Origin: an uncultured Bacteroidota bacterium
GTDB lineage: Bacteria; Bacteroidota; Ignavibacteria; UBA10030; UBA6906
Assembly: GCA_963700635.1 (NCBI GenBank)
Contig: CAVOYH010000004.1
Span: 384,001-448,000 of the forward strand
Length of the DNA stretch: 64,000 nt
Direction of reading: 5' to 3'
Numbering within the stretch: position 1 is the stretch's first letter; each line of letters opens with the position of its first letter. Positions 6,311-38,958 of the stretch are shown one piece after another. The position numbers and the translations under genes are program-made. The notes under the pieces are model-generated. The model was not told the DNA's origin and did not search any database. It saw only the letters and a list, made by a program, of their open reading frames with translations.

Positions 6311-7227
6311 CAGGCCGGAGTGGCCCAAGCACCCGGCCGGTACCGGATCAATGGACCGTGCTGTCATTGATCCAATGGTCAACCGGGCATCTTGAAGACA
6401 TGGGATTTGATGAAACCCGGCTCCACGCTGAACTTCTGCTCGCCCACGTGCTCGGGCTTAAGCGACTGCAGTTGTACCTTCAGTTTGACCGTCCGCTGAC
6501 GCCGGACGAATTGGCTTCCTTCAAGCGAGTATTCAAGCGGCGCCTGGATCATGAGCCCCTGCAGTACATCCTTGGTGAAACGGAGTTTATGGGAATAACC
6601 CTTGCTGTTGCGCCGGGCGCTCTCATTCCCAGACCGGAGACCGAGCTGCTTGTTGAAAAGGTGGTCGCTCATGTTCGCTCTCTGGACCGCGAATCAGTAC
6701 GCGTTCTGGATGTTGGCACCGGATCAGGCAATATCGCTATCGCCGTGGCACGCCTCGCTCCTTCTGCAAGGGTCACGGCCGTTGATCACAGTCCGGAGGC
6801 GCTGACGATCGCCCGCCTCAACGTCGAACGGCATCACGAAAAGCATGTATCAGTCAGGCAAGGAGATGTGCGCCAGGGTGTGTGGGACGCGGACTCGTAT
6901 GATGTGGTGGTGTCAAATCCCCCGTATATCGCCATCGATGAGTACCTGAAACTACAACCCGAAGTCCGTGATCATGAGCCCCGTATCGCCCTGACCGATG
7001 AAGGTGATGGCCTTTCGTTCTATCGTACACTTTTTGCTCTGGCAGCAAAGGTGCTGGGATCCGGAGGGAGACTCTTCTGTGAGATCGGGTATGGCCAGGC
7101 TGATGCTATCGGGCTCCTGGCCAGCTCAGCCGGCATCCAGGTTCTGGATATATTTCCCGATCTGGCCGGAATTCCCCGTGTGCTTCACGGTCGCGTAGCT
7201 GTCATGCCTGTCAACGGAAGAGGATAA
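6307..7227 (+). CDS. prmC: release factor glutamine methyltransferase
   Basis: EPLQYILG, LIPRPETELLV, LDVGTGSG, VSNPPYI; ATG overlaps the upstream TGA. Confidence 0.93.
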   Translation: MTGRSGPSTRPVPDQWTVLSLIQWSTGHLEDMGFDETRLHAELLLAHVLGLKRLQLYLQFDRPLTPDELASFKRVFKRRLDHEPLQYILGETEFMGITLAVAPGALIPRPETELLVEKVVAHVRSLDRESVRVLDVGTGSGNIAIAVARLAPSARVTAVDHSPEALTIARLNVERHHEKHVSVRQGDVRQGVWDADSYDVVVSNPPYIAIDEYLKLQPEVRDHEPRIALTDEGDGLSFYRTLFALAAKVLGSGGRLFCEIGYGQADAIGLLASSAGIQVLDIFPDLAGIPRVLHGRVAVMPVNGRG

Positions 7228-7231
7228 TGGT

Positions 7232-7705
7232 ATGCGGGTTGTTCTCCAGCGGGTGAGCGAGGCCGGGGTACAGATTGACGGGAAGGACCATGCAAAAATC
7301 TCCATCGGATATCTGATTCTGCTGGGGATACGTCAGGGTGATACGCAGGAAGACGCGCGATTTCTCGCGGACAAATGTGCGGCGCTGCGGGTATTCGAGG
7401 ACAACCAGGGGAAGATGAACCTGGGGTTGCAGGATGTGGGAGGGAGTGTACTTGTGGTCTCTCAATTTACGTTGTATGCGGACGCCCAGAAGGGAAATCG
7501 CCCCGGATTCTCGCTTGCCGCAAGGCCTGACGAGGCAAGGCCGCTCTACGAGTTCTTCGTCCAGCGCCTGCGGACGACCCTGGGAGAGGACCGTGTGCTG
7601 ACCGGTGTGTTCGGGGCAATGATGCAGGTTCACCTCGTAAATGACGGGCCGGTGACAGTAATAGTAGAGAGTCCGGTTCGCACGGCAGAAAGGTCCGGAC
7701 CGTGA
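7232..7705 (+). CDS. dtd: D-aminoacyl-tRNA deacylase
   Basis: MRVVLQRVSEA, SQFTL, GNRPGF, NDGPVT. Confidence 0.96.
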   Translation: MRVVLQRVSEAGVQIDGKDHAKISIGYLILLGIRQGDTQEDARFLADKCAALRVFEDNQGKMNLGLQDVGGSVLVVSQFTLYADAQKGNRPGFSLAARPDEARPLYEFFVQRLRTTLGEDRVLTGVFGAMMQVHLVNDGPVTVIVESPVRTAERSGP

Positions 7706-8658
7706 CCCGCGTGCTCATGATTTTTCTCGATGGTGTCGGGATAGGCCTGAAGGATCCAGGGATAAATCCCGTCGTCGCGGCACGATTGCCCTTCTTGCGG
7801 GAACTCCTTGGGGGTGAAGTCCCGACGCTCGGGAAACGGCGATGGAATGCGCCACGCGCAACGGTTCTTCCTCTGGACGCAACACTCGGAGTTCCTGGCC
7901 TGCCGCAGAGCGGCACCGGGCAGACTGCTCTTTTTACCGGAGTGAATGCGGCCAAGTTGATCGGCAAACACTTCGGGCCGTTCCCGTACTCAACTCTCCG
8001 GCCGGTGATTGAAGCACACAGCATCTTCAAACGCCTCCAGCTGGCAGGACGTGCAAGCTGTTTTGCTAACGCATTTCCACAGAAGTATTTCGACTACATT
8101 GAGAATCGGAAGACCAGAACCACCGTCACGACGTTTTCGTGCCTCACAGCCGGGATCCCGATACGACGCGCTGCTGACCTTGTCCAGGGGAAGGGGGTTT
8201 CCGCAGATATTACAGGAGAAGGGTGGGCTGCACTGGGTCATCCCACCGTCCCGGTCATCACACCGCAGGAAGCGGGACGGCGTCTTGTTGCACTGACAGG
8301 AGAGTATGAGTTTGTTCTTTTTGAATACTGGAAAACCGATCAGGCAGGGCACAGCCGGAACATGGCTGGCGCAGTGCACATCCTCGAGATGTTTGATGAT
8401 CTCCTCGGCGGTGTGCTTGAAGCAGCTGATAGTACACAGACGCTGATCGTTCTCACGAGTGACCACGGCAATATTGAAGACATTTCGACAAAGACCCATA
8501 CCCGTTATCCCGTCCCCCTGATTCTCGCCGGCACACGTCATGCCGATGTAGCCGAACGAGTTCTGCACTTCGGGGGCCGCTCGCCCGATCTCACACATGT
8601 CCTCCCGACACTTATGGAGGTTCTGGGTGCAGAGCGCGGGCAACCGCAATCACCATAG
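7702..8658 (+). CDS. alkaline-phosphatase-superfamily metalloenzyme (phosphoglycerate/phosphopentomutase-like)
   Basis: FLDGVG, LPQSGTGQT, DQAGH and SDHGN metal-ligand motifs. Confidence 0.8.
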   Translation: MTRVLMIFLDGVGIGLKDPGINPVVAARLPFLRELLGGEVPTLGKRRWNAPRATVLPLDATLGVPGLPQSGTGQTALFTGVNAAKLIGKHFGPFPYSTLRPVIEAHSIFKRLQLAGRASCFANAFPQKYFDYIENRKTRTTVTTFSCLTAGIPIRRAADLVQGKGVSADITGEGWAALGHPTVPVITPQEAGRRLVALTGEYEFVLFEYWKTDQAGHSRNMAGAVHILEMFDDLLGGVLEAADSTQTLIVLTSDHGNIEDISTKTHTRYPVPLILAGTRHADVAERVLHFGGRSPDLTHVLPTLMEVLGAERGQPQSP

Positions 8659-10987
8659 CTGGCCGGCCCTCTTCGCTGCTCTTCTCCTCACCGTCGGCAT
8701 TGTTCCAGGTTACCGATATGGCCTCCCGTTCGTATCATCGGAACTTGCCGCGGGGGGAATTCTCCTCCTTTCCGTCGCCGTCTGCGCCTCCACAATCCGC
8801 ACCCCGCATGGGGTCTCTCCTCTGCTGTCCCTCATCGGTGCGGGGATCGTTGTCTCGACGGGAGCAGTGATGGGTGCTGCTGCGCGGTCGGCAGAGCCAC
8901 TGCTGCCTGTAACAATAACCGGCGAACCTGTGACGGTCATCGGAGAGGTCCTGGAGCCTCCATCGTGGTCCGGGAACTCCCTCAGGTTTCGTCTCGCCGT
9001 CCATACGATTCTCTCGGACACGATTGTCACGCACGTCCCGGTCACCGCGCTGGTTGCCGTTCGTAGCGGGGAGGGTGCAGAATCCACCATCGTGCCCGAC
9101 TACGGAATGACGGTGGTGCTTCACGGATTGCTCGAACTACCCCGTTCCGCTCCTAATCCCGGGGAGTTTGACGCCCGGGCATACTACCGCGCCAACGACA
9201 TTGCCATACTCCTGCGTGTCCGGGGAAACCACCATGTTTGTATCCTCGACAGTGGTGGTGGCTGGTGGGCTATGCGCACCATCGTGGCCCCTGCCAGGCG
9301 AACGCTTCTCGATCATATCGACCGCAGCATCGGCGGTGAGGAGGGCGAGTTTCTGAAGGGGCTGATGATCGGGGAGCGGGGCGGGCTCAGCCCGCAGTTA
9401 CGTGCTGCCTTTCTTACCTCGGGCGTGGCGCATATCCTTGCGGTTTCGGGTTCCAATGTGGCCGTCGTGGCAGCCGCCTTGTTCGCCATACTCCTGCTCC
9501 TACGAATTCCGCGGCGCCTGCATGCATATCCGGTGGCCTGCGCGATGCTTCTGTATATGCTCCTGACCGGGAGCCAGCCTTCCGTGGTTCGAGCCACGAT
9601 TATGGCTCTTGTCGGTCTGCTCGTTTCCCGCAGGGGAATCCGGGGTAATGGCTTAAATGCCATTGGAATTGCTGCACTGATCATGTTCTTTCTGGACGTC
9701 CGGCAGGTATTCGATATGGGCTTCCAGCTTTCCTTTGGTGCAGTGCTGTCGATCATTCTTCTCTACCCGAAAGTCAACCGGCGCATCATCGCTTGGAAGG
9801 GAAATACGCGGTTCCGCCGGATCACCAGGGGAGGGCTCCGGCTTGCCGCAGTGTCGCTTGTGGCATCGGTCGGGACCTTCCCCTTGAGCGCCGGGGCCTT
9901 CGGGCAGGTCTCGGTCATCGGGCTTCTCGCCAACATTGTCGTTGTTCCTGTAAGTGGATGGTCCGTTGTGCTCGGGCTGCTGTCCGCTGCCGCTGAACCT
10001 CTCAGCGCAACTGCTGCAGCATCGCTCAGCGCACTGAACGCCTCAGTGCTCGCGTTCACGTTGCGTGTTGTCAGCATAAGCGCCGGCATTCCCTGGGCCT
10101 CATTTACAACGTTCTGGTTTGAACCGGTGTACACATTTCCATTTCTCGGCGTTCTTGGCATTGCGTATCACGCCGGAGATCCTTCCACCCGGCGCCTCTG
10201 GTGTATCGTTGCGCTTGCGGGCACCAACCTCGCGGTGTATCTTCCCGGGCGATATCAGCGGGAGCCGGGAACGTTCTTCGTCACGGCTATTGACGTCGGC
10301 CAGGGTGATGCAATCCTGCTGGAACATCCTGATGGAGGCGCGGCTCTTATCGATACAGGTCCGGTTCCGTTTGACGAGCGCAGAGGACTCGTTCCATTCT
10401 TGAGGCGGCGGGGCATTTCAGCTCTTGACGTCGTGGTTATCACACATCCCCATGACGACCATAACGGTGGCCTGAGTTCTCTGTGCAAGGTGATTGCGGT
10501 CGGGCGATTGATCACCCATTCGACAGCACGTGCCGGGACGCTCATCTCCTGGAAAGACGATTGCCGCCTGCAAATTCTGCATGCAGCGCCACCCGATGCC
10601 GGTCTTCCGGCTCCAGAGCAGAATCCGAATCGTCTCTCCGTGGTCGTGCGCCTGGTGTATGGCAGAACCGCCTTTTTGTTCGCGGCAGATGCTGAAGTAC
10701 CGGAGGAAGTACGGATGATACACGGATACGGAGTCGGGCTTGAATCTACTGCGCTGAAAGTCGGGCATCATGGCAGTGCCTCTGCGACCACAGATGCCTG
10801 GCTGGATGCTGTGCAGCCGGTCTATGCCATCATCACTGTCGGACAGAGGAACCGCTTTGGGCATCCATCGGCGGCAGTGCTTCGCCGGCTGCTGAAACGC
10901 GGAATCCACATCGCGCGAACAGACGAGGATGGTGCAGTGATGCTGGGCAGCGACGGTACAACCGTCCGCCGGTATCTCTGGCGTTAG
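8597..10987 (+). CDS. comEC: DNA internalisation competence protein ComEC/Rec2 (start uncertain)
   Basis: NPGEFD, HILAVSGSNV, PSVVRA, GFQLSF, DVGQGD, THPHDDH MBL motif, KVGHHGS, NRFGHP. Confidence 0.92.
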   Translation: MSSRHLWRFWVQSAGNRNHHSWPALFAALLLTVGIVPGYRYGLPFVSSELAAGGILLLSVAVCASTIRTPHGVSPLLSLIGAGIVVSTGAVMGAAARSAEPLLPVTITGEPVTVIGEVLEPPSWSGNSLRFRLAVHTILSDTIVTHVPVTALVAVRSGEGAESTIVPDYGMTVVLHGLLELPRSAPNPGEFDARAYYRANDIAILLRVRGNHHVCILDSGGGWWAMRTIVAPARRTLLDHIDRSIGGEEGEFLKGLMIGERGGLSPQLRAAFLTSGVAHILAVSGSNVAVVAAALFAILLLLRIPRRLHAYPVACAMLLYMLLTGSQPSVVRATIMALVGLLVSRRGIRGNGLNAIGIAALIMFFLDVRQVFDMGFQLSFGAVLSIILLYPKVNRRIIAWKGNTRFRRITRGGLRLAAVSLVASVGTFPLSAGAFGQVSVIGLLANIVVVPVSGWSVVLGLLSAAAEPLSATAAASLSALNASVLAFTLRVVSISAGIPWASFTTFWFEPVYTFPFLGVLGIAYHAGDPSTRRLWCIVALAGTNLAVYLPGRYQREPGTFFVTAIDVGQGDAILLEHPDGGAALIDTGPVPFDERRGLVPFLRRRGISALDVVVITHPHDDHNGGLSSLCKVIAVGRLITHSTARAGTLISWKDDCRLQILHAAPPDAGLPAPEQNPNRLSVVVRLVYGRTAFLFAADAEVPEEVRMIHGYGVGLESTALKVGHHGSASATTDAWLDAVQPVYAIITVGQRNRFGHPSAAVLRRLLKRGIHIARTDEDGAVMLGSDGTTVRRYLWR

Positions 10988-12925: not shown

Positions 12926-13396
12926 ATGATACCAATGGTCAGCAGAATCATAGAGGTCTGTGTGTTCAGGTTCCGGGCCGATCATATTGAATACCTTGTT
13001 CTCCGACGCGCGCCACAGGAACAGGTCCATCCGGGAATGTGGCAGATTGTCACCGGCAGGGTGGAAGAGGGAGAAAAGGCCCTGAATACGGCCTTGCGGG
13101 AACTACAAGAGGAAACGGGGCTGGTGCCGGAACACTGCTGGTCTCTGCCAATGCTCACCTTTTTTTTTGATGTACGCAGCAATGCCATCAACATGTGCCC
13201 TGTTTTTGCCGTGCAAGTGAAGGATGGGACGAATCCTGTCCTGTCCGGTGAACACATAACGTATGCCTGGCTTCCACATGAGTCCGCGCGGACACGCCTG
13301 GTCTGGCCGAGCCATCGCAAAGCTGTTGATCTGGTGGACCGGTACATCGTCAAGGGGGAGGAGGCGGCATACAGGTTAGAACTGGACGTTTCTTGA
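12926..13396 (+). CDS. NUDIX hydrolase (NudB-like)
   Basis: WQIVTGRVEEGEKALNTALRELQEETGL Nudix box; LSGEH. Confidence 0.88.
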   Translation: MIPMVSRIIEVCVFRFRADHIEYLVLRRAPQEQVHPGMWQIVTGRVEEGEKALNTALRELQEETGLVPEHCWSLPMLTFFFDVRSNAINMCPVFAVQVKDGTNPVLSGEHITYAWLPHESARTRLVWPSHRKAVDLVDRYIVKGEEAAYRLELDVS

Positions 13397-13421
13397 AACT
13401 CTAGGGGGCTTTCCGTACCTT
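13393..13421 (+). promoter_or_regulatory. putative sigma70 promoter
   Basis: TTGAAA-N17-TACCTT before the PfkB-mtnA-recO-degP run. Confidence 0.45.
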
Positions 13422-13470
13422 ATACTGCAATTGTTCCGATTTTCGGTTTCATCAATGCACTGGAGACCCC

Positions 13471-14385
13471 GTGAGCGTGCTCGTTGTCGGTTCCGTAGCC
13501 CTTGATACGATTGAAACACCGTTCGGTTCAGTGCATGATGCGGTCGGTGGATCTGCAACCTATATCTCCGCCGCGGCAAGCTACTTCGTCAGCCCCATCC
13601 GGCTTGTTGGTGTGGTCGGAGGGGATTTCCCCCGCGAAGGGCTGGCATTTCTTGAGGAACGTAAGGTTGATCTGGAAGGACTCGAGGTTATCGCAAACGG
13701 CAAGACATTCCGCTGGTCGGGCCGATATCATTATGATTTGAATATGCGGGACACACTCTCCACCGACCTGAACGTGTTTGAACGATTTGATCCGAAGATC
13801 CCGGAGCGGCACCGGAAAATCCGTACGGTGTGCCTGGGCAACATTGATCCGGTTCTCCAGCGTAAGGTGCTCCAACAAATGGAGAATCCCCGCATTGTCG
13901 TGTGCGACACGATGAACTACTGGATCGAGGGCAAGCGGGAAGAACTCCTGAAGACGCTCACGATGATCAATGTGTTGATTCTGAATGACTCTGAAGCACG
14001 GCTATTATCAAAAGAACCGAATCTGATCAAGGCGTCGAAGGTGATCCGCAGTATGGGCCCCGGCGTTATCATCATCAAAAAGGGAGAGCACGGTGCGCTG
14101 CTGCTCACCGATTCCGTGGTCTTCTCTGCGCCGGCCTACCCCATGGAAAATATTTTTGATCCGACAGGTGCAGGGGATTCATTTGCCGGAGGTTTTATCG
14201 GATGGCTGGCCCGGACAGAAGACATGTCGGAAGAGAATCTAAAACGCGCAGTGATCTACGGCAGTACGCTCGCTTCATTTTGTGTTGAGAAGTTCGGTGT
14301 TGAGGGATTGTCAGACCTGACGTATCTTCGCATCCAGGACCGGTTCCGTGAGTTCAGAGAGCTTTCCCGATTTGATGAGGACTGA
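13471..14385 (+). CDS. PfkB/ribokinase family carbohydrate or nucleoside kinase
   Basis: VVGSVALD, GGSATY, NDSEA, DPTGAGDSFAGG. Confidence 0.9.
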   Translation: MSVLVVGSVALDTIETPFGSVHDAVGGSATYISAAASYFVSPIRLVGVVGGDFPREGLAFLEERKVDLEGLEVIANGKTFRWSGRYHYDLNMRDTLSTDLNVFERFDPKIPERHRKIRTVCLGNIDPVLQRKVLQQMENPRIVVCDTMNYWIEGKREELLKTLTMINVLILNDSEARLLSKEPNLIKASKVIRSMGPGVIIIKKGEHGALLLTDSVVFSAPAYPMENIFDPTGAGDSFAGGFIGWLARTEDMSEENLKRAVIYGSTLASFCVEKFGVEGLSDLTYLRIQDRFREFRELSRFDED

Positions 14386-14393
14386 TTGACACC

Positions 14394-15431
14394 ATGAAGG
14401 CTGTTGACTGGACCGATGGCCAAATACGGTTTCTCGACCAGACGCTCCTCCCGCACGAGGAGCGTTTTGTCGATACTCACGACGTCCGCGTGGTGGAAGA
14501 GGCCATCCGAAAACTCAGAATCCGGGGCGCGCCTGCCATCGGGGTGGCGGCGGCATTCGCCGTGGTACTTGCCGCGAGGGGGGGTGAAGGGAGTGATGGA
14601 CGCACACTCCGCGAGCGCGTCGAAAATGCTGTGGCCGTCTTGAGAATGACCCGCCCTACAGCGGTGAATCTGTTCAACGCCCTCCACCGCATGCAGCGGG
14701 TAGTGGACATGCACCCCCGGGAGGGTGACGATGACCTTCTGCCGCTGCTCATGCAGGAGGCAAAGAGAATTCAGGAAGAAGATCAACGGGCCTGTGACAG
14801 AATAGGAGAACTCGGGGCTTCGCTCCTTGGGACAGGGGTTTCACTCCTGACGCACTGTAACGCCGGGGCGCTGGCGACGGCGGGCAGTGGTACTGCCCTG
14901 AGCATCATTACAACGGCAGCCCGGGAGGGAAAAGTTGTGAGGGTATTTGCGGACGAAACCAGACCTCTGCTGCAGGGGGCACGGCTGACTGCCTGGGAGC
15001 TGCAGAAAGCCGGGATACCGGTTGTATTGATAACGGATAGTACCGCGGGATCAGTTCTGCGGGAAGGCAGAGTGCAGGCAGTGATTGTCGGAGCGGATCG
15101 TATCGCGGCCAACGGAGACACCGCGAACAAAGTTGGTACCTATCCCCTCGCAGTCCTCGCTCACCGTCATCATGTTCCGTTCTATGTTGCAGCTCCAACG
15201 TCGACGCTGGATGCACATTCCGCTGATGGGTCGGCCATTCCGATTGAGGAGCGTGATCCGATGGAAGTGACACACTTTGCCGGAGTCCGGGTTGCGCCTG
15301 ACGGAGTCGGCGTGTATGCTCCCGCCTTTGACGTGACGCCGAACCAACTCATTTCCGCCATTGTTACAGAGAACGGAATCCTCCGTCAGCCTTTTGATGC
15401 GTCTATCGCAAGGACATTGCAGACTTTATGA
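14394..15431 (+). CDS. mtnA: S-methyl-5-thioribose-1-phosphate isomerase
   Basis: LDQTLLP, IRGAPAIG, TRPTAVNL, LTHCNAGALAT, ETRPLLQGARLTAWEL, NKVGTY, FDVTP. Confidence 0.93.
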   Translation: MKAVDWTDGQIRFLDQTLLPHEERFVDTHDVRVVEEAIRKLRIRGAPAIGVAAAFAVVLAARGGEGSDGRTLRERVENAVAVLRMTRPTAVNLFNALHRMQRVVDMHPREGDDDLLPLLMQEAKRIQEEDQRACDRIGELGASLLGTGVSLLTHCNAGALATAGSGTALSIITTAAREGKVVRVFADETRPLLQGARLTAWELQKAGIPVVLITDSTAGSVLREGRVQAVIVGADRIAANGDTANKVGTYPLAVLAHRHHVPFYVAAPTSTLDAHSADGSAIPIEERDPMEVTHFAGVRVAPDGVGVYAPAFDVTPNQLISAIVTENGILRQPFDASIARTLQTL

Positions 15432-29866: not shown

Positions 29867-29890
29867 TATGTGAACACTCCGATCCTTCAA

Positions 29891-31981
29891 ATGAACATGC
29901 CACTTCGCATCCTGCTCTCCCGTGCTGTACGCACATGCATGTGGACCTGTCTGTGCTCTTCTCTCCTCTTTTCCCAGCCGGGGACAGACGGGGAGCCCTT
30001 TCTTTTGACCGGACACACCGATGCCGTCCTCGCACTCACATTCAGCCCCGACGGCAAGTTCCTTGTGAGCGGGGGGAAGGATGAATCCCTGCGGATCTGG
30101 GAACGAAAAGGCGCCGTGTATGAACCCGGCACCGTCCTTGATGCAGGGCGTACGATCCGTACTGTAACGTTCTCGGCGGATGGCCGCATGTGCATCGAGG
30201 GCGGAGACCGGGTGCGTGATACGGACAACCATCTCGGTATCTGGTATGCAGGAGGTGCGTCGCTCAGCACTAGAGTGTTGGACGATACGTGGAACGTCGA
30301 CGTCCTGGCTCTCGCGCTCAATGGCAAACGAAAAGCTATTGCCTGTGGACTCGGCGACTATACGATAAAAGTCGTGGATGCAACAACCCTTCGCGCTCTG
30401 TCGCGACTGGAAGGTCACGTGGGAGAGGTGCAGGCCGTTGCGTACAACCATGACGGGACGATTCTGGCTACCGGCGGCGAAGGGGGGGCTATCCTGCTCT
30501 GGAATGCCGCAACGGGCAAGCTCACCGCGACGCTCGCCGGGCATGCTGGCGAGGTGCTGGCGCTGGCCTTTCACCCGAACGGGAAAGTACTCGCTTCAGC
30601 CGGGTCCGATCAACAGATTATTCTGTGGAATGTTGCAAGCAGATCAATCACGAAATCGTTGCTGGGGCACACCGACGATGTGACATGCCTTGCGTTTAGC
30701 CCCGACGGAAAGATGCTGGCATCGGGAAGCCTGGATTACACGGTGAGACTCTGGTCGGCGGACACGGGCACGGAGCTGAGAATTCTTCCCGGCCATGAGG
30801 ACGCGGTGTACGGTGTGGCCTTCGCACCCTCGGGCGGCCTGCTGGCGAGTGCAGGCGGAGATGAGATCATCCGGCTCTGGAATCTCACACCGGGTAAGCG
30901 AAAGATACCCCCTCCCGTGGCAGATATCCCCCAGACCGACATAGCCGACAAAATCCCGGCGCGGATTACACTTCTGGAACCATCTCCCTCGCGCGGCATG
31001 AAGGTCGTGCAGCAACAGGAGAAGGTCACAATCAAGGGTAAAGTAACGCCTGCAGCAGGGATCCAGAAAGTATACGTCAATGAGAAGGAAGCCCGGCTTG
31101 TGAAAAACGGCGAGTTCTCGATCCCTGTCCTTCTGGAGGAAGGGGAGAACGTCATGACGATCCGTGCTGTGGACAAGAAACAGAATGCGGTCGAGGAAAC
31201 ATTCACTGTTACCCGTGAGTCACCCTCTGTCGCCCGCCAGCTTGTGGCACGCCGCGGCAAGGAGTACGCTCTTCTGTTTGCGCTGGACGAATACGATGAA
31301 TGGAGACCGCTCACAAATCCCGTCAATGATGCCAAGGCAATCGCGGCGGAATTACGGTCGTCATATGGATTTGAGACGGAGTTGCTCTCGAACCCGACCC
31401 AGGCGGAAATCCTCTCAACGCTGCGTTCATATGCCGCACGGACGTATGCCGACGGTGATCAGTTGCTGCTTTTTATTGCGGGGCACGGCCAGTTTGATGA
31501 GGTTCTGGGGGACGGGTACATTGTGGGCCGCGATTCCCGGTTGCGTGATGACATCAAGACCAGCTATATTTCCCATTCCACGTTACGCACCGTGATTAAC
31601 AACATCCCCTGCAGGCATATCCTTCTTATTGTCGATGCCTGCTTCGGAGGCACGTTTGATCCGTTGATCGCCGCAAATCAGAGAGGTGATGACGAATACA
31701 GCCAGGTGACGAAGACAGAATTTATTGAGAGGAAACTGCGCTTCAAGACACGGCGTTTTCTCACCTCAGGGGGGAAGGAATATGTTCCTGATGGCCGGCC
31801 CGGACAACATTCGCCATTCACGCGCCGTTTTCTGGAAGCCCTACGCAGTTACGGTGGGAAGGATGGTATCCTGACACTCGGTGAAGTTCATCAATACATT
31901 GAAAAGGTCACACCTGAACCGCGGGGGGGAGAATTCGGCTCCAACGATCCTGGTAGTGACTTCCTGTTCATCGCACGCTAG
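29891..31981 (+). CDS. WD40 repeat + Ig-like + caspase-family (C14) domain protein
   Basis: Five clear GH...W repeats plus degenerate ones; Ig-like LEEGENVMTIRAVD; L.NPVNDA, FIAGHG and VDACFGG His/Cys dyad; HSPFT. Confidence 0.88.
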   Translation: MNMPLRILLSRAVRTCMWTCLCSSLLFSQPGTDGEPFLLTGHTDAVLALTFSPDGKFLVSGGKDESLRIWERKGAVYEPGTVLDAGRTIRTVTFSADGRMCIEGGDRVRDTDNHLGIWYAGGASLSTRVLDDTWNVDVLALALNGKRKAIACGLGDYTIKVVDATTLRALSRLEGHVGEVQAVAYNHDGTILATGGEGGAILLWNAATGKLTATLAGHAGEVLALAFHPNGKVLASAGSDQQIILWNVASRSITKSLLGHTDDVTCLAFSPDGKMLASGSLDYTVRLWSADTGTELRILPGHEDAVYGVAFAPSGGLLASAGGDEIIRLWNLTPGKRKIPPPVADIPQTDIADKIPARITLLEPSPSRGMKVVQQQEKVTIKGKVTPAAGIQKVYVNEKEARLVKNGEFSIPVLLEEGENVMTIRAVDKKQNAVEETFTVTRESPSVARQLVARRGKEYALLFALDEYDEWRPLTNPVNDAKAIAAELRSSYGFETELLSNPTQAEILSTLRSYAARTYADGDQLLLFIAGHGQFDEVLGDGYIVGRDSRLRDDIKTSYISHSTLRTVINNIPCRHILLIVDACFGGTFDPLIAANQRGDDEYSQVTKTEFIERKLRFKTRRFLTSGGKEYVPDGRPGQHSPFTRRFLEALRSYGGKDGILTLGEVHQYIEKVTPEPRGGEFGSNDPGSDFLFIAR

Positions 31982-33634: not shown

Positions 33635-33928
33635 ATGGAATTAGGGCGCGTCGAAGGCACGATTGTTTCTACTGCCAAAACAGGCCGGCTCAAGGGCTAC
33701 AAGCTCCTGCTGATCAATCTGATCGGACCCGATGCGTCACCCGGCAGTAACCATGTCGTCGCCGTAGACGCCGTAGGCGCAGGAGAGGGAGAAGTTGTTA
33801 TTGTTGTGCGCGGCAGTTCCGCCCGGCAGGTTGATGACCTTTCCAATATCCCCACCGATACCAGCATCGTGGCTATCGTTGATTCCATCGAGTATAGGGG
33901 CAAAACCGTCTTCCGGAAGAGTTCCTGA
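33635..33928 (+). CDS. BMC vertex pentamer (EutN/CcmL family) 1
   Basis: MELGRVEGTIVST.K, VAVDAVGAGEGEVV..GSSAR, D.SIVAIVD. Confidence 0.95.
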   Translation: MELGRVEGTIVSTAKTGRLKGYKLLLINLIGPDASPGSNHVVAVDAVGAGEGEVVIVVRGSSARQVDDLSNIPTDTSIVAIVDSIEYRGKTVFRKSS

Positions 33929-34201
33929 ATGAAACTCGGGAAAGTGACCGGTAAAGTCTGGGCTACCATCAAGGATCCCAAACTCAACGGTATTCCCCTT
34001 TTCGTTATGCAGCCCGTGGACGAGTCAGGCAATGCCCTGGGAAACGAACTGATTGCCGCGGATACCATCGGGTCGCGCGAAGGCGATCTCGTGTTTTGGG
34101 TTGGCGGAGCAGAGGCAACGTTCGTTTTCCCCCAACGACAGATTCCAAGTGACGTTTCCATCGTGGGTCTGGTGGATCGACTCGACCTTCAAGACGACTG
34201 A
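33929..34201 (+). CDS. BMC vertex pentamer (EutN/CcmL family) 2
   Basis: MKLGKVTGKVWATIK, AADTIGSREGD, DVSIVGLVD. Confidence 0.93.
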   Translation: MKLGKVTGKVWATIKDPKLNGIPLFVMQPVDESGNALGNELIAADTIGSREGDLVFWVGGAEATFVFPQRQIPSDVSIVGLVDRLDLQDD

Positions 34202-34205
34202 AACC

Positions 34206-34490
34206 ATGATCCTCTGCAAAGTAGTTGGCAATATTGTCTCCACCGTCAAGCATAATGCATACCGGAACGCGAAAATCATGCTTGTGCGGCCGGTCAGTCC
34301 TGACGGGGTTACAAAATCAGGAACAATGGTGGCCGTGGATACCGTGGGAGCCGGGGAGGGCAATATTGTTCTGGTGGCATCGGAGGGCCGGGCCGCGATG
34401 GAGATTCTCGGGTTTACCGCCCGCCAGCCCCTTCGCAGCGTGATTGTAGGCATTGTCGATCATATCGAATATGACCGGAAGCGTGAATGA
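34206..34490 (+). CDS. BMC vertex pentamer (EutN/CcmL family) 3
   Basis: MILCKVVGNIVSTVK, VAVDTVGAGEG, EGRAA, IVGIVD; start ATG 34206. Confidence 0.93.
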   Translation: MILCKVVGNIVSTVKHNAYRNAKIMLVRPVSPDGVTKSGTMVAVDTVGAGEGNIVLVASEGRAAMEILGFTARQPLRSVIVGIVDHIEYDRKRE

Positions 34491-35143
34491 GACCAGAGGA
34501 ATTGCGGCCCTATGTGGAGCGTGCGGTGCGCGAGGCGATCGAACGTCAGCTGTCATCACCTTCACATAACAAGGTGCCGCTGAACATTTCGGCGCGCCAT
34601 CTGCATATCCGCCAGGATCATCTGGAAATGCTGTTTGGTGCCGGGACCCAGCTCACAAAGCTGAGAGATCTGCTGCAGCCGGGAGAATTCGCCGCAAACG
34701 AAACCGTCACGGTTGTCGGCCACAACCGCCGTGTGTTCGAGCAGGTACGTATTCTTGGACCTGTGCGGAAAGCGACGCAGGTGGAGCTCTCGTATACAGA
34801 TGGACGGTATCTGGGAATGGATCTCCCGGCGCGCGTGTCGGGCGACATCGCCGGTACGCATCCGGTCGTCCTGGTCGGTCCAAAAGGATCACTCTATCTT
34901 CCGGAGGGGGTGATTCGGGCGTTGCGCCATATTCACTGCAGCGAAGAAGACGCCCTCCGCCTCGGTCTGCGCAACGGTCAGATGGTGAATGTCCGAACAA
35001 CAGGGCCTATGGCGGTCACGCTCCACCAGGTGTTACTCAGGGTGGGGAAGAATGCGCGCAGGGAAATGCACATCGATACAGACGAAGCGAACGCAGCAGG
35101 GCTGGGGGCCGGGGCAACGGGAGAGATTGTGAAGGAAACCTGA
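34487..35143 (+). CDS. pduL: PduL-type phosphotransacylase with N-terminal encapsulation peptide
   Basis: SARHLH, L.QPGEFAA, VRILGPVR..TQVE, RHIH, MHIDTDEANA; N-terminal amphipathic helix. Confidence 0.93.
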   Translation: MRPEELRPYVERAVREAIERQLSSPSHNKVPLNISARHLHIRQDHLEMLFGAGTQLTKLRDLLQPGEFAANETVTVVGHNRRVFEQVRILGPVRKATQVELSYTDGRYLGMDLPARVSGDIAGTHPVVLVGPKGSLYLPEGVIRALRHIHCSEEDALRLGLRNGQMVNVRTTGPMAVTLHQVLLRVGKNARREMHIDTDEANAAGLGAGATGEIVKET

Positions 35144-35181
35144 TCAAACAGGGTGAATTGAGAATACTGACGTGAGGTTGC

Positions 35182-36603
35182 GTGATAGACCAGAAAAGTA
35201 TCACTGACATTGTGGAAACTGTGGTTGCCCGCCTGAAAGCGGAAGGAGTGGCGGGAACCGGTCCCCCTCCGGTCGCACATGGTTCTGGCGTCTTTGAACG
35301 GATAGAGGATGCGATTGCAGCGGCCCGTGATGCACAACCCCAGTGGGCTTCTACCCCCCGGGCCGTCAAAGAGCGCGTCATCACGGCGCTGCGCAATGTG
35401 ATGCATGCCCATGCGGAAGATCTTGCCCGCCGGGAATGGGAAGAGACAGGGCTCGGACGTGTTGAAGACAAAGTGGTGAAAATTCACAATGCTGCAAATG
35501 CCACCCCCGGGTGTGAGGACCTTGACACACGCTCCTGGAGTGGCGACAAGGGACTGGTAGTCGAAGAGTTCGCCCCCTACGGCGTTGTCGCCGCCGTGAC
35601 ACCGTCGACCCACCCTGTCCCTGTACTGTTTAACAGTCTCGTCATTATCATCGCCTCAGGGAATACCGTTGTGTTTAACGTCCATCCCGCGGCGAAACAG
35701 GTATCCGCTCACGCCCTGAAGCTGTTCCACCGTGCCATCTGCGAGAATGGCGGGCCTTCGCATGTCGCCACCATGGTTGCCGAACCAACAATCGAGAGCG
35801 CGAATACACTTTTTCGCGAACGCTCGATCCGTCTCATCGGAGCTACCGGCGGACCCGGCCTGGTAAAATCGGCGTTCAGCTCAGGCAAAAAGGTTATCGC
35901 GGCCGGACCCGGCAATCCTCCGGTTCTCGTGGATGAAACGGCCGACCTGGACATGGCTGCAAAGCACGTTATCGAGGGGGCCTCGTTCGATAACAACATC
36001 CTCTGCATCGCCGAGAAAGAGGCTTTTGTGGTTGATGGGGTCTATCGCCAGTTCCTGGATGCGCTCGCACGACACGGAGCGGTGCGACTGACCCGCGAAC
36101 AAATCCAGACGCTTGCGCGGAAGGTTTTCCTGAAGAATGAGCGGGGGGAAGTGCAGACCAGCCGCGAGTTCGTCGGCAAAAATGCCAATGTCCTGGCCCG
36201 CGCCGTCGGGATAACACTTCCTGACAGTGCCCGTCTTCTGTACGGCGAAGCGGAGTTTGACTGTGAGTTCGTCCAGGAAGAACAAATGATGCCGTACCTT
36301 CCCGTGGTGCGTGTCCGCGATGTTGATGAAGGTATCAGCCTCGCACACAAGGCAGAACACCGGTACGGACACACCGCGATGATTCATTCCAACAATCTTG
36401 AAACCATCACGCGGTTTAGCAGAACTCTGAACACATCGATTATCGTCGTGAACGGTTCCAGTCTCGTCGGGCTCGGCGGCTTGGCGGGCGAAGGAACATT
36501 CTCGCATACTGTTTCGAGTCCGACCGGTGAGGGGGTCTGTACTCCCCGCCATTTTGCCCGTACGCGGCGTCTGGCATTTGGAAAGAGTCTTCATTTCGTC
36601 TGA
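35182..36603 (+). CDS. CoA-acylating aldehyde dehydrogenase (EutE/PduP family) with encapsulation peptide
   Basis: ETGLGRVEDK, ATGGPGLV, AGPGNPP, SFDNNILCIAEKE, PTGEG; N-terminal SITDIVETVVARL. Confidence 0.93.
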   Translation: MIDQKSITDIVETVVARLKAEGVAGTGPPPVAHGSGVFERIEDAIAAARDAQPQWASTPRAVKERVITALRNVMHAHAEDLARREWEETGLGRVEDKVVKIHNAANATPGCEDLDTRSWSGDKGLVVEEFAPYGVVAAVTPSTHPVPVLFNSLVIIIASGNTVVFNVHPAAKQVSAHALKLFHRAICENGGPSHVATMVAEPTIESANTLFRERSIRLIGATGGPGLVKSAFSSGKKVIAAGPGNPPVLVDETADLDMAAKHVIEGASFDNNILCIAEKEAFVVDGVYRQFLDALARHGAVRLTREQIQTLARKVFLKNERGEVQTSREFVGKNANVLARAVGITLPDSARLLYGEAEFDCEFVQEEQMMPYLPVVRVRDVDEGISLAHKAEHRYGHTAMIHSNNLETITRFSRTLNTSIIVVNGSSLVGLGGLAGEGTFSHTVSSPTGEGVCTPRHFARTRRLAFGKSLHFV

Positions 36604-36686
36604 CGATTGATGCAGTACTCTGACGATGAACACTAAACGTAAGAAACGACAATACTTCACATTTTCTCACACCTAGGAGCACTCAC

Positions 36687-36974
36687 ATGGCAATGGAAGC
36701 ACTTGGAATGATCGAAACCCGCGGACTTGTCGGGTCTATCGAGGCGGCGGATGCAATGGTCAAAGCCGCGCGCGTACAGCTTATCGGCAAGGTGCTTGTC
36801 GGTGGCGGACTCGTGACCATTTTTGTTCGCGGTGATGTCGCGGCGTGTAAGGCGGCGACGGATGCCGGTGCGGCAGCAGCACAGCGGGTCGGTGAGCTGG
36901 TCAGCTCCCATGTGATTCCGCGTCCGCATGATGAAATCGAAACCATTCTCCCTCAGCGGACTGACAAAGCATAA
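36687..36974 (+). CDS. BMC hexamer shell protein (EutM/PduA-like)
   Basis: [39 protein letters not shown]. Confidence 0.97.
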
Positions 36975-36985
36975 GGAATCTTCAG

Positions 36986-37771
36986 GTGAACAACCTGCTT
37001 ACCCTGAAACGGGACCTTGTTGAAGTTGGCCGCCGTGTGTACGCACGCGGTTATGTTGCGTCCAACGACGGAAATATCAGTGCACGACTTGACGAAAAAC
37101 GTGTTGTCATTACCCCGACCGGCGTCAGCAAAGGGTTTATGACGCCCGAAGATATGACGGTTGTGGACCTGGAAGGGAAGGTGCTCTCCGGAACCCGAAA
37201 ACCATCGTCCGAAGTGTACATGCATCTTGCCGTCTACAAAAACCGGCCGGATATCCACAGCGTGTGTCATGCACATCCCCCGTATGCGACCGGATTTGCC
37301 GTGGCGGGGATCCCCCTGGACAAATGTATCCTCCCCGAAGTGGTGATTGTCCTGGGCGGTATTCCCCTCGTGGAGTATGGAACGCCCGGTACCGAAGATT
37401 TCTTCAGGCCCGTCCTCAAGATTCTCGACAAGTACGATGCGTTCCTGCTGGCGAACCACGGTGCGCTCACCATCGGCAAGGATATCTATAACGCCTACTA
37501 CAAGATGGAAACGCTTGAGCACTTCGCCCACATTGCCTTTGTCGCCGAACAGCTCGGTCACATGACGGTGCTGAACAGAGATCAGGTGCAGAAACTGACT
37601 GATCTCAGGCAGAAGTTCGGGATCCGGACAAGCGTCGGTTGCGTAACATGTGATGATGATGCGTCAACCTGCGCCGCACCCGACCCCGAACCGCCGGCCG
37701 GAGGGCAGGACAATGAGTCGCTCATCCGGAGCATCACCGATGCGGTCATGAAGAAACTCCAGCAGTCGTAA
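36986..37771 (+). CDS. class II aldolase (FucA-like) with C-terminal encapsulation peptide
   Basis: DGNIS, ITPTG, PSSE..MH, VCHAHPPYAT, LLANHG; C-terminal SLIRSITDAVMKKL. Confidence 0.92.
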   Translation: MNNLLTLKRDLVEVGRRVYARGYVASNDGNISARLDEKRVVITPTGVSKGFMTPEDMTVVDLEGKVLSGTRKPSSEVYMHLAVYKNRPDIHSVCHAHPPYATGFAVAGIPLDKCILPEVVIVLGGIPLVEYGTPGTEDFFRPVLKILDKYDAFLLANHGALTIGKDIYNAYYKMETLEHFAHIAFVAEQLGHMTVLNRDQVQKLTDLRQKFGIRTSVGCVTCDDDASTCAAPDPEPPAGGQDNESLIRSITDAVMKKLQQS

Positions 37772-38958
37772 TGAACATCATCGTCTGCAACATCGGTTCG
37801 AGCAGCTTCAAGTTCCAGCTGCTCGACATGCCGGGGGAACGCCAGCGTGCACGCGGGTACACCGAACGCGTGGGCGCGCAGGACGCGATCACGACGTACT
37901 GGGTTGAGGACCGGCAGGTCTACCAGGCGGTAAAGGGCGTTCCCTCACACCGTGAGGCCGTACAGGATGCCATTGACTTTCTGGTCGATCCAAAGAACGG
38001 CGTGCTTTCTTCGCTCGATCAGATCGAAGGCGTAGGATTCAAGACCGTGCAGGGTGGAGAGAAAAATGGTTCTGTTTTCCTGACCGAGGATGTTCTGGAA
38101 GCCATGGAAGTGTACAGGGATCTGGCCCCCGCGCACAATCCCCCGTATCTGACGGCAATCAGAATGTTCAGGGAACTCCTTCCCCGTACGCCGCTTGTCG
38201 GCGTGTTCGAACCGGGATTCCATACGACGATACCGGAGTACGCCCGGGTGTACGGGGCTCCGTTTGAGTGGTATGAACGCCTGGGCGTAAAAAAATACGG
38301 GTATCACGGCGCATCGCACAAGTTTATTGCCACGGAGACGGTGCGGCGGTTTGGCCTGCCTGTCGACAATCACCGGATAATCTCCTGCCACCTTGGCGGC
38401 TCCTCATCACTGTGCGCGATCAAGAATGGGGTTTCCATTGACACCTCAATGGGCTTCACCCCGCAATCAGGCCTTCTTCAGGGTACCCGGGTCGGGGATA
38501 TGGATCCGTTTGTTCTGCCGTTTGTGATGAAGAAGAAGGGGATCACGCTCGATCAGGCGCTTGCGGAATGTTCAAAAAACGGGGGTCTGGCAGGGATTTC
38601 GGGAATCTCCGCCGATATGCGGGATATCAATGCAGCCGTGGCGCGGGGGGATCGCCGTGCCCGCCTCGCGCGTGACCGCTTTGTCTATGACTGCAAGCGT
38701 TACGTGGGGGAATACCTTGTGTTGCTGGAGGGCGTGGATGTGATTGTCTTTACGGGCGGGATCGGCCAGCGTGATGCGGCTCTGCGTCGAGAAGTACTCA
38801 GCGCCCTGAGTTTTCTCGGGCTGAAGCTCGACGATGCGAAGAATAACGCGCATGCAGATCGTATCACTACGGCAGATTCAACCATCGTCGGAGTGGTTCT
38901 GGCGACCGATGAAGAGATTGTCGTTGCCCGTGAGACCGTACGGGTGATCGGGCAATAG
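37771..38958 (+). CDS. acetate/propionate kinase family, divergent active site
   Basis: NIGSSSFKF, APAHNP, YGYHGASH, CHLGGSSS, DTSMGFTP, GTRVGD, FTGGIG, TDEE. Confidence 0.92.
   Translation: MNIIVCNIGSSSFKFQLLDMPGERQRARGYTERVGAQDAITTYWVEDRQVYQAVKGVPSHREAVQDAIDFLVDPKNGVLSSLDQIEGVGFKTVQGGEKNGSVFLTEDVLEAMEVYRDLAPAHNPPYLTAIRMFRELLPRTPLVGVFEPGFHTTIPEYARVYGAPFEWYERLGVKKYGYHGASHKFIATETVRRFGLPVDNHRIISCHLGGSSSLCAIKNGVSIDTSMGFTPQSGLLQGTRVGDMDPFVLPFVMKKKGITLDQALAECSKNGGLAGISGISADMRDINAAVARGDRRARLARDRFVYDCKRYVGEYLVLLEGVDVIVFTGGIGQRDAALRREVLSALSFLGLKLDDAKNNAHADRITTADSTIVGVVLATDEEIVVARETVRVIGQ

Follow-up and report, generated by a model that had tools for sequence, protein, structure and literature searches.

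An eight-gene microcompartment operon

We analyzed a 64,000-nucleotide (nt) stretch of DNA (C4:384001-448000, contig 4; hereafter, the window) from a bacterial genome assembly of 4.2 Mb in six contigs (97% complete, 6.7% contamination). Our subject is an operon at 33635-38958 of the window that encodes shell proteins and enzymes of a bacterial microcompartment (BMC). Eight tightly packed open reading frames (ORFs) were found on the + strand at the coordinates of an initial annotation, with spacings from an overlap of a few bases up to 83 nt. Their positions and matches to Pfam and NCBIfam models confirmed that all eight genes are of the kinds originally named, as follows.

33635..33928, + strand: BMC-P paralogue 1, shell vertex pentamer (PF03319, E 1.1e-27)
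33929..34201, + strand: BMC-P paralogue 2 (PF03319, E 3.7e-26)
34206..34490, + strand: BMC-P paralogue 3 (PF03319, E 1.1e-22, from a scan begun at 34209)
34487..35143, + strand: PduL-type phosphotransacylase, for CoA recycling and acyl-phosphate formation (PF06130, E 7.1e-67; NF011652, 232 bits against a cut-off of 209)
35182..36603, + strand: CoA-acylating aldehyde dehydrogenase (AldDH), EutE/PduP-like (NF011927, 551 bits against a cut-off of 403; PF00171, E 1.3e-40)
36687..36974, + strand: BMC-H hexamer (PF00936, E 7.8e-29; NF012018 EutM, 145.5 against 133)
36986..37771, + strand: class II (Zn) aldolase, the signature enzyme (PF00596, E 1.6e-52)
37771..38958, + strand: acetate/propionate-family kinase, acyl-phosphate to acid and ATP (PF00871, E 5.9e-109; TIGR00016 AckA, 370 against 293)

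The ATG start of the third BMC-P gene was placed at 34206 from its translation, which corrects the earlier 34209. The three BMC-P genes are adjacent paralogues with 30-40% mutual identity, the first being 33-40% identical to the other two and 84-94% identical to its orthologues in related loci (L011-L017). There is a single BMC-H in the operon. Neither the operon nor its flanks encode a second hexamer, a tandem-domain shell protein (BMC-T), a regulator, a kinase for sugars or a dehydrogenase other than AldDH, in agreement with the initial annotation, which had listed a second hexamer, BMC-T, an NADH-recycling dehydrogenase, a DeoR regulator and a sugar kinase as missing from this locus.

Encapsulation-type helices and structure of the aldolase

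Amphipathic helices of the encapsulation type had been proposed at the N-termini of PduL and AldDH and at the aldolase's C-terminus. All three of the peptides originally quoted were found, and a cysteine motif precedes the last of them.

34496..34552, + strand: PduL N-terminal encapsulation-peptide-like helix, about residues 4-22 (moment 0.64, 97th percentile in the protein)
35194..35238, + strand: AldDH N-terminal encapsulation-peptide-like helix, about residues 5-19 (moment 0.53, 95th percentile)
37640..37672, + strand: Cys219/Cys222/Cys229 triad (CxxCx6C) in the aldolase tether (CxxCx(3-12)C pattern in orthologues)
37715..37765, + strand: aldolase C-terminal encapsulation-peptide-like helix, about residues 244-260 (association of the tail with shell genes in related loci)

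For helical hydrophobic moment, every one of the three peptides ranks among the highest 5% of its protein, and 3-5% of shuffles match the value observed; the three share one register, xxΦΦxxΦΦxxΦΦxxL. The PduL motif precedes the catalytic domain in most of 31 orthologues (those of L041 and L047 begin later), and the AldDH helix is conserved in 36 of the 38 sequences of the common peptide profile, its own sequence counted. The kinase has no terminal extension; its N-terminal moment (0.24) is unremarkable and that of its C-terminal window (0.46) was reached by 21% of shuffles. This enzyme is probably cytosolic.

The aldolase core ends near residue 215 and is followed by a tether and then by the terminal helix. 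An AlphaFold2 model built from a 28-sequence alignment placed a helix at residues 243-260 after an unstructured segment at 211-242, at low confidence (mean pLDDT, the per-residue confidence score, 61.9). We compared related loci anchored on the aldolase, using the best 80 of 506 confirmed relatives in public genomes. Shell genes were present in 50 of the 53 loci whose aldolase carries the terminal helix, and 24 of the 26 without the helix had no shell genes. The CxxCx(3-12)C pattern followed the same division (38/53 orthologues with the helix versus 1/26 without), and C219 is invariant in 28 sequences; the motif may be a metal site. H95, H97, H158 and E76 are likewise invariant in 28 sequences and align with Streptococcus pneumoniae FucA (4C24), in which we take the corresponding columns to be the three Zn-binding histidines and the catalytic glutamate.

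Satellite shell genes and a candidate redox module

The initial annotation had proposed a genome-wide search for satellite shell genes and dehydrogenases, and had regarded missing parts found in satellites of an already characterised subtype as evidence against a novel system. The search found such parts. A PF00936 profile matched five sequences in three places of the genome, and PF03319 matched three sequences, all in the operon. One satellite, on contig C3, encodes a 97-aa BMC-H followed by a 174-aa BMC-H with a C-terminal extension of about 90 residues; these two share 77% and 70% identity with the BMC-H of the operon. The extension of the 174-aa protein (L009 10423-10947) ends in a charged helical segment and had neither a Pfam match nor a significant PDB sequence match.

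The other satellite, on contig C5, encodes a 441-aa PduS-like NADH dehydrogenase that matches PF01512, PF13534, PF13375 and PF10531; among its domains are a Nuo51-type FMN/NADH domain, an SLBB domain, a 4Fe-4S dicluster and an RnfC-type barrel. A 183-aa tandem-BMC protein, a PduT-like BMC-T, begins 3 nt after it. This protein aligned over its full length with the PduT structures 3PAC (E 6e-43) and 3N79 (E 9e-40), and its TICSGKY aligned on the TICPGKF of PduT, with the cluster cysteine retained. CSGK is the usual form of the pore motif in the clade (14/19, 4/4 and 3/3 orthologues). Three ORFs of the xanthine-dehydrogenase family (FAD/2Fe-2S, hammerhead and MoCo; L010 4570-8382) end 30 nt before the PduS-like gene and keep this place in 4/4 relatives; because all neighbours are syntenic, we draw no functional link from this arrangement.

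PduS-like proteins, renamed MNdh in a 2024 PNAS paper (PMC11626177), were shown there to take electrons from NADH and export them by way of the PduT-type Fe-S cluster, thereby regenerating NAD+, and the same source counts 361 loci that have a PduS/PduT pair and no alcohol dehydrogenase. In the present genome no Fe-type alcohol dehydrogenase scored over the cut-off. The module here resembles the published MNdh/BMC-T(SE) arrangement in that a PduS-like protein, which has an FMN/NADH domain as well as two 4Fe-4S motifs, is encoded beside a PduT homologue and occurs together with an AldDH in a system that lacks an alcohol dehydrogenase; it differs in that the pair is a satellite placed after xanthine-dehydrogenase-family genes and in its pore motif, CSGK rather than CP(G/S)K (PMC11626177).

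Two further BMC-H, a BMC-T and a PduS-like dehydrogenase in two satellite loci of the same genome mean that the description of the operon as a stripped-down variant fails at the genome level. The redox balance, considered unexplained at first, has a candidate answer in the PduS/PduT pair, which is published as a stand-in for alcohol dehydrogenase (PMC11626177). The absence of DeoR extends beyond the locus: PF00455 had no match anywhere in the genome (97% complete), and tblastn with two DeoR proteins from related loci returned nothing.

Conservation of the operon and its satellites

The compact eight-gene order was found in 8 of the 80 related loci (L011-L017 and L054). PduS and BMC-T lie inside the locus in 19 of the 80, mostly between the BMC-P triplet and PduL; in L019, two extra BMC-H, PduS and BMC-T directly follow AckA. 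A PD-(D/E)XK nuclease gene and a DUF559 gene (7570-7947 and 9994-10491) are inserted within the otherwise complete BMC locus of L019. The Pfam-annotated fuller loci L025 and L041 begin with a DeoR gene and hold a protein of about 250 aa that starts with a helix; the L041 version has an RpiB-like domain at its end, and a PfkB kinase is additionally present in L025. When the RpiB-like cargo and PfkB of these loci were used in tblastn searches of the present genome, only a housekeeping-looking RpiB and generic PfkB kinases were found.

Five BMC domains in three places were also found in 4 of 5 close relatives, the fifth being a fragmented assembly with one match. Further, the C3 and C5 satellites and their neighbours were syntenic in 4/4 relatives examined. 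The closest loci carry Bacteroidota or Ignavibacteriota record titles, and on these titles the operon appears to come from an Ignavibacteria/Bacteroidota-like organism, which supports the Ignavibacteria-like host suggested at first.

Assignment to the MIC4 type by gene content

Judged by its gene content, the system is an ordinary member of a catalogued, experimentally uncharacterised type, MIC4, with satellite parts; it is not a member of the Planctomycetes/Verrucomicrobia (PVM) type. MIC4 ("metabolosome with incomplete core 4") comprises 15 loci in the supplement of Sutter et al. (2021, Nat Commun; PMC8217296), where it is known from bioinformatics only and its hosts are given as Actinobacteria, Bacteroidetes, Calditrichaeota, KSB1, Firmicutes and Ignavibacteria. 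The supplement describes an AldDh with an N-terminal peptide, a PTAC (pfam06130), a pfam00596 aldolase and a pfam00871 kinase; a shell with a BMC-P triplet (green, grey and orange clades), to which some loci add one standard BMC-H; and a pair formed by a PduS homologue and a BMC-T of the PduT type with a cysteine in its pore (PMC8217296). The main locus here likewise has a pfam00171 AldDh with a conserved N-terminal encapsulation peptide, a PTAC, the aldolase and the kinase, and the genome agrees with the described shell in having three adjacent BMC-P paralogues, a single BMC-H in the operon and a PduS/BMC-T pair with a pore cysteine. Unlike in the description, this pair is on another contig, a third place holds two extra BMC-H, and DeoR is absent. 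That the assignment was made by gene content counts as a reservation against it.

The initial comparison with PVM and PVM-like loci as aldolase-type metabolosomes holds. Experimental work on the PVM metabolosome was reportedly carried out by Erbilgin et al. in 2014. PVM loci are described as having a class II aldolase, DeoR, an acetate kinase and a recycler of the lactate/malate-dehydrogenase type, and as serving fucose and rhamnose use; the PVM-like loci include that of the ignavibacterium Melioribacter roseus (PMC4207490, in the taxonomy of 2014). The likeness lies in the aldolase-type metabolosome, which in PVM organelles serves fucose and rhamnose catabolism via lactaldehyde (PMC4207490). 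In contrast to PVM, which in that source is confined to Planctomycetes and Verrucomicrobia, the closest loci here carry record titles of Bacteroidota and Ignavibacteriota; PVM has DeoR, whereas the system here has no DeoR in the genome and would use PduS/BMC-T for NAD+. No recycler of the lactate/malate-dehydrogenase type was found in the operon or its flanks, and the whole genome was not searched for one. We do not count the system as a PVM member because the DeoR, recycler and host-taxon features were looked for and not found.

Another catalogued type, FRAG1, is described in the supplement as 57 loci, mostly from Ignavibacteria, that are shell-only and without enzymes, and for which targeting-peptide searches with hidden Markov models (HMMs) were negative (PMC8217296). 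The dispersed satellite shell genes on C3 and C5, kept in 4/4 relatives, match what the supplement says of FRAG1 shell genes. In contrast, the BMC-P triplet here shares an operon with four enzymes. A C-terminal extension like that of the 174-aa satellite BMC-H is mentioned for FRAG1, as "analogous to EutK", in the same supplement (PMC8217296).

Taken together, it is likely that a MIC4-type metabolosome has its main locus in the operon and its other genes scattered in the genome, and that NAD+ in it is recycled by PduS/BMC-T; rhamnulose-1-phosphate is the most likely feed. Of the original interpretation, the kind of organelle and the absences from the locus stood, and the stripped-down character and the unexplained redox balance did not.

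Evidence for rhamnulose-1-phosphate as the probable aldolase substrate

L-rhamnulose-1-phosphate, which would yield lactaldehyde, was the most likely substrate of the aldolase, at somewhat better than an even chance. Among the sources of aldehyde initially offered, lactaldehyde from a deoxy sugar was the best supported, with rhamnose as the sugar, and no evidence was found for glycolaldehyde derived from a pentose. The only other PF00596 gene in the genome is araD, adjoining a ribulokinase gene. RhaA is encoded in the genome (NF002203, 636 bits versus a cut-off of 572), as are two paralogous kinases whose best model was rhamnulokinase (TIGR02627, 518 and 508 bits) and which are 44% identical to the RhaA-adjacent kinases of L096 and L097.

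Co-occurrence was examined in 151 evenly sampled genomes of the same order. The aldolase clade, defined by similarity and coverage and not by the tail (a full-length aldolase at least 49% identical), was present in 18 genomes. RhaA was found in 19/151 genomes, namely in 14/18 with the aldolase clade versus 5/133 others, counts that overstate independence because genomes of one order are kin. In three of these genomes, the homologous BMC locus has genes for RhaA, DeoR and a kinase resembling rhamnulokinase at its sides, and one of the three also has lactate-utilisation genes of the LutB/LutC type. The rhamnose link thus rests on co-occurrence and on three other genomes, because RhaA and the kinases are distant from the operon here.

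Two side observations concern these genes. The stretches that hold the two kinases of the present genome, L094 (C4:75000-94000) and L095 (C3:1899000-1918000), are paralogous, each with a TonB receptor, an aldo-keto reductase, an FHA/SLT protein and the rhamnulokinase-like kinase; the two kinases are 67% identical. Beside the BMC locus in L097, a 446-aa protein with two tandem class II aldolase domains (6714-8054) is encoded between RhaA and LutB-like genes.

Besides the kinship of the sampled genomes, several results weigh against a MIC4-type organelle fed by rhamnulose-1-phosphate. No NCBIfam equivalog for an aldolase substrate reached its cut-off with the operon aldolase, which is about equally far from FucA, from the 5-deoxyribulose-1-phosphate aldolase 6BTD and from the aldolase 6VOQ. 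Both kinases scored just below the TIGR02627 cut-off of 528. RhaA was not found in 4 of the 18 aldolase-clade genomes, lies 246 kb from the operon here, with the kinases on other stretches, and the aldolases of the three RhaA-linked genomes are only 50-52% identical to that of the operon. Homologues of LutB and LutC were not found by tblastn of the genome. The pore motif of the BMC-T is CSGK, versus the published CP(G/S)K. Finally, no expression data were found for the operon, and the functional statements made here derive from sequence, synteny and co-occurrence among related genomes.

Alternative explanations

The shell encoded by the operon might instead be minimal in the strict sense, made of three pentamers and one hexamer and without any partner to recycle NADH; it would then be a reduced variant of a new kind, and its redox problem would be open. 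This would agree with the operon and flanks, which lack a second hexamer, BMC-T, dehydrogenase, regulator and kinase, with the absence from the genome of DeoR and of an Fe-type alcohol dehydrogenase over the cut-off, and with the recurrence of the compact order in 8/80 related loci. It is contradicted by the further BMC-H, the BMC-T and the PduS-like NADH dehydrogenase of the same genome, by the conservation of the satellites together with the operon in relatives and by the loci (19/80) in which PduS/BMC-T lies within the operon; we consider a minimal shell very improbable. The other alternatives concern the substrate. The aldolase could mainly serve the salvage of S-adenosylmethionine by-products (the dihydroxyacetone phosphate (DHAP) shunt), in which 5-methylthio- or 5-deoxy-ribulose-1-phosphate made by MtnA would be split into DHAP and (methylthio)acetaldehyde or acetaldehyde, and AldDH would detoxify the aldehyde. 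A bona fide MtnA is encoded in the window (14394-15431; NF004326, 443 bits versus 271), the genome has no MtnB and no class II aldolase besides AraD and that of the operon, and 6BTD was among the best PDB matches of the operon aldolase (E 3e-26). Further, an aldolase homologue was present in 121/138 genomes with MtnA versus 2/13 without (n=151), and more distant aldolase homologues adjoin metF in L189 and L190. Yet MtnA is near-universal in the order (138/151) and tracks neither BMC (105/151) nor the aldolase clade (18/151), which is discriminated by RhaA and not by MtnA; its gene is separated from the operon by 19 kb and by unrelated genes, and the flux of salvage seems modest for an organelle in which one branch yields ATP. 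By-product salvage as the main role is accordingly unlikely. A bolder possibility is that the same aldolase takes the MtnA product as well, because the genome has no other candidate enzyme.

Doubtful to a similar degree is a substrate of another ketose-phosphate kind, either L-fuculose-1-phosphate from fucose or a pentulose phosphate that would yield glycolaldehyde, as in PVM organelles using fucose and rhamnose. The use of both sugars by PVM organelles speaks for it, as does the statement in the same source that class II aldolases are promiscuous (PMC4207490); FucA models were among the best NCBIfam and PDB matches, and the fuller relatives encode an RpiB-like protein that begins with a helix, along with a PfkB kinase. 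In the present genome, however, no FucI N-terminal domain scored over the cut-off, the two kinases reached only 174 and 156 bits on the fuculokinase model versus 518 and 508 on that of rhamnulokinase, the arabinose route has its own AraD, and RpiB-like cargo that bears a targeting helix was not found.

Two observations on neighbours of the genes weighed above are recorded here. In the window, NUDIX, PfkB kinase and MtnA genes stand in a row at 12926-15431. The distant aldolase homologues (37-46% identical; L188 5705-6502, L189 17312-18082, L190 6114-6749) adjoin ddl and metF; those of L188 and L189 have amphipathic tails and come from genomes with BMC-P, and the homologue from a genome without BMC-P has 211 aa and no tail.

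A second tagged aldolase

When all six-frame ORFs of the genome were scanned with the peptide profile, the best match after the operon aldolase was a deoxyribose-phosphate aldolase (DERA) encoded on the minus strand (C4:344760-345611), outside the window and 72 kb upstream of the operon. It matched deoC (TIGR00126, 269 versus a cut-off of 117.3) with an alignment that starts at residue 73. The region ahead of this residue has an amphipathic helix (residues 2-17) and, after it, a stretch rich in cysteine, recorded here alongside the three-cysteine motif of the aldolase tether.

Among 80 DERA-related loci, 38 have shell genes within 7 kb; these are mostly of the sugar-phosphate-utilising (SPU) type from Anaerolineales, with the order RpiB-DERA-BMC-P-AldDH-BMC-H, and their matches mostly start at residues 1-7 of the extension, with about ten of the 38 starting later (residues 27-69). 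Another 38/80, mostly from Ignavibacteria/Bacteroidota, have the extension and no shell gene nearby, and the 4/80 without the extension had no shell genes. In the order sample, a DERA match covering the extension was found in 89/105 genomes with BMC-P versus 2/46 without.

The DERA extension of SPU loci is itself already known: the SPU DERA, its N-terminal extension of about 70 residues and its complex with RPI have been characterised in a 2024 paper (PMC11585597). The present DERA is 50-58% identical, extension included, to shell-adjacent DERAs of the Chloroflexi type (mostly Anaerolineales). Unlike the SPU systems described in that paper, its gene is solitary, at a distance of 72 kb from the operon, and does not lie in a shell locus; the RpiB of the genome lacks the N-terminal helix of SPU RPIs; and AldDH has its peptide at the N-terminus, whereas that of SPU6 AldDH is C-terminal (PMC11585597). 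The same RpiB (L091 8824-9492, contig C1) has a 74-residue N-terminal extension homologous to the middle domain of some SPU-locus RPIs. We found no report, in open-access papers or bioRxiv, of the DERA extension as dispersed cargo in Ignavibacteria-like genomes.

These results raise the possibility, which we put forward tentatively and at less than even odds, that the shell of this lineage is a shared, genome-dispersed aldehyde organelle fed by two or more aldolases with different tags, among them the MIC4 class II aldolase (lactaldehyde from rhamnulose-1-phosphate) and an SPU-type DERA (acetaldehyde from deoxyribose-5-phosphate), with NAD+ recycled by electron export. Weighing against a place for DERA in this shell are its modest peptide-profile score (8.6 bits), the distance of its gene from shell genes (72 kb) and the behaviour of the profile, which at a 4-bit cut found 22/38 shell-linked DERA orthologues and also 10/42 unlinked loci and is thus a weak classifier on DERA N-termini.

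Proposed pathway

In the pathway that we propose, a ketose-1-phosphate, most likely L-rhamnulose-1-phosphate made in the cytosol by RhaA and rhamnulokinase, would enter the shell, where the tethered class II aldolase would split it into DHAP and lactaldehyde. AldDH would oxidise the aldehyde to acyl-CoA with production of NADH, PduL would convert acyl-CoA to acyl-phosphate and return CoA, and the kinase would make ATP outside the shell. [quoted passage not shown] Less certainly, the tagged DERA may feed acetaldehyde from deoxyribose-5-phosphate into the same shell.

Genomic surroundings of the operon

Upstream of the operon lie genes for an S46 peptidase, a WD40-caspase fusion and a lipoprotein-like ORF, and downstream lie convergent genes for aromatic amino-acid biosynthesis. 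The fusion, just upstream of the operon at 29870-31981, combines WD40 repeats and a C-terminal caspase (peptidase C14) domain in one 703-aa protein. Scans for sigma-70 promoters and terminators gave counts not above those of shuffles, and the consensus may not apply to the host phylum.

Significance for Ignavibacteria-like microcompartments

The locus does not represent a minimal organelle of a new kind that leaves a cofactor problem unsolved. Its type is a catalogued one, and a published module located elsewhere in the genome gives a likely answer to the redox question. MIC4 is experimentally uncharacterised; this genome and its relatives offer L-rhamnose as a concrete substrate to test, and they list in full the parts needed for heterologous reconstruction. 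Further, views of a single locus mislead in this group, as Ignavibacteria-like genomes distribute their organelle genes among four places or more. For FRAG1, the commonest BMC in the group and so far without assigned enzymes, the tagged DERA points to a possible function; if the shared-organelle proposal is true, this enzyme would be the cargo that the "shell-only" microcompartments of the FRAG1 type in Ignavibacteria have seemed to lack.

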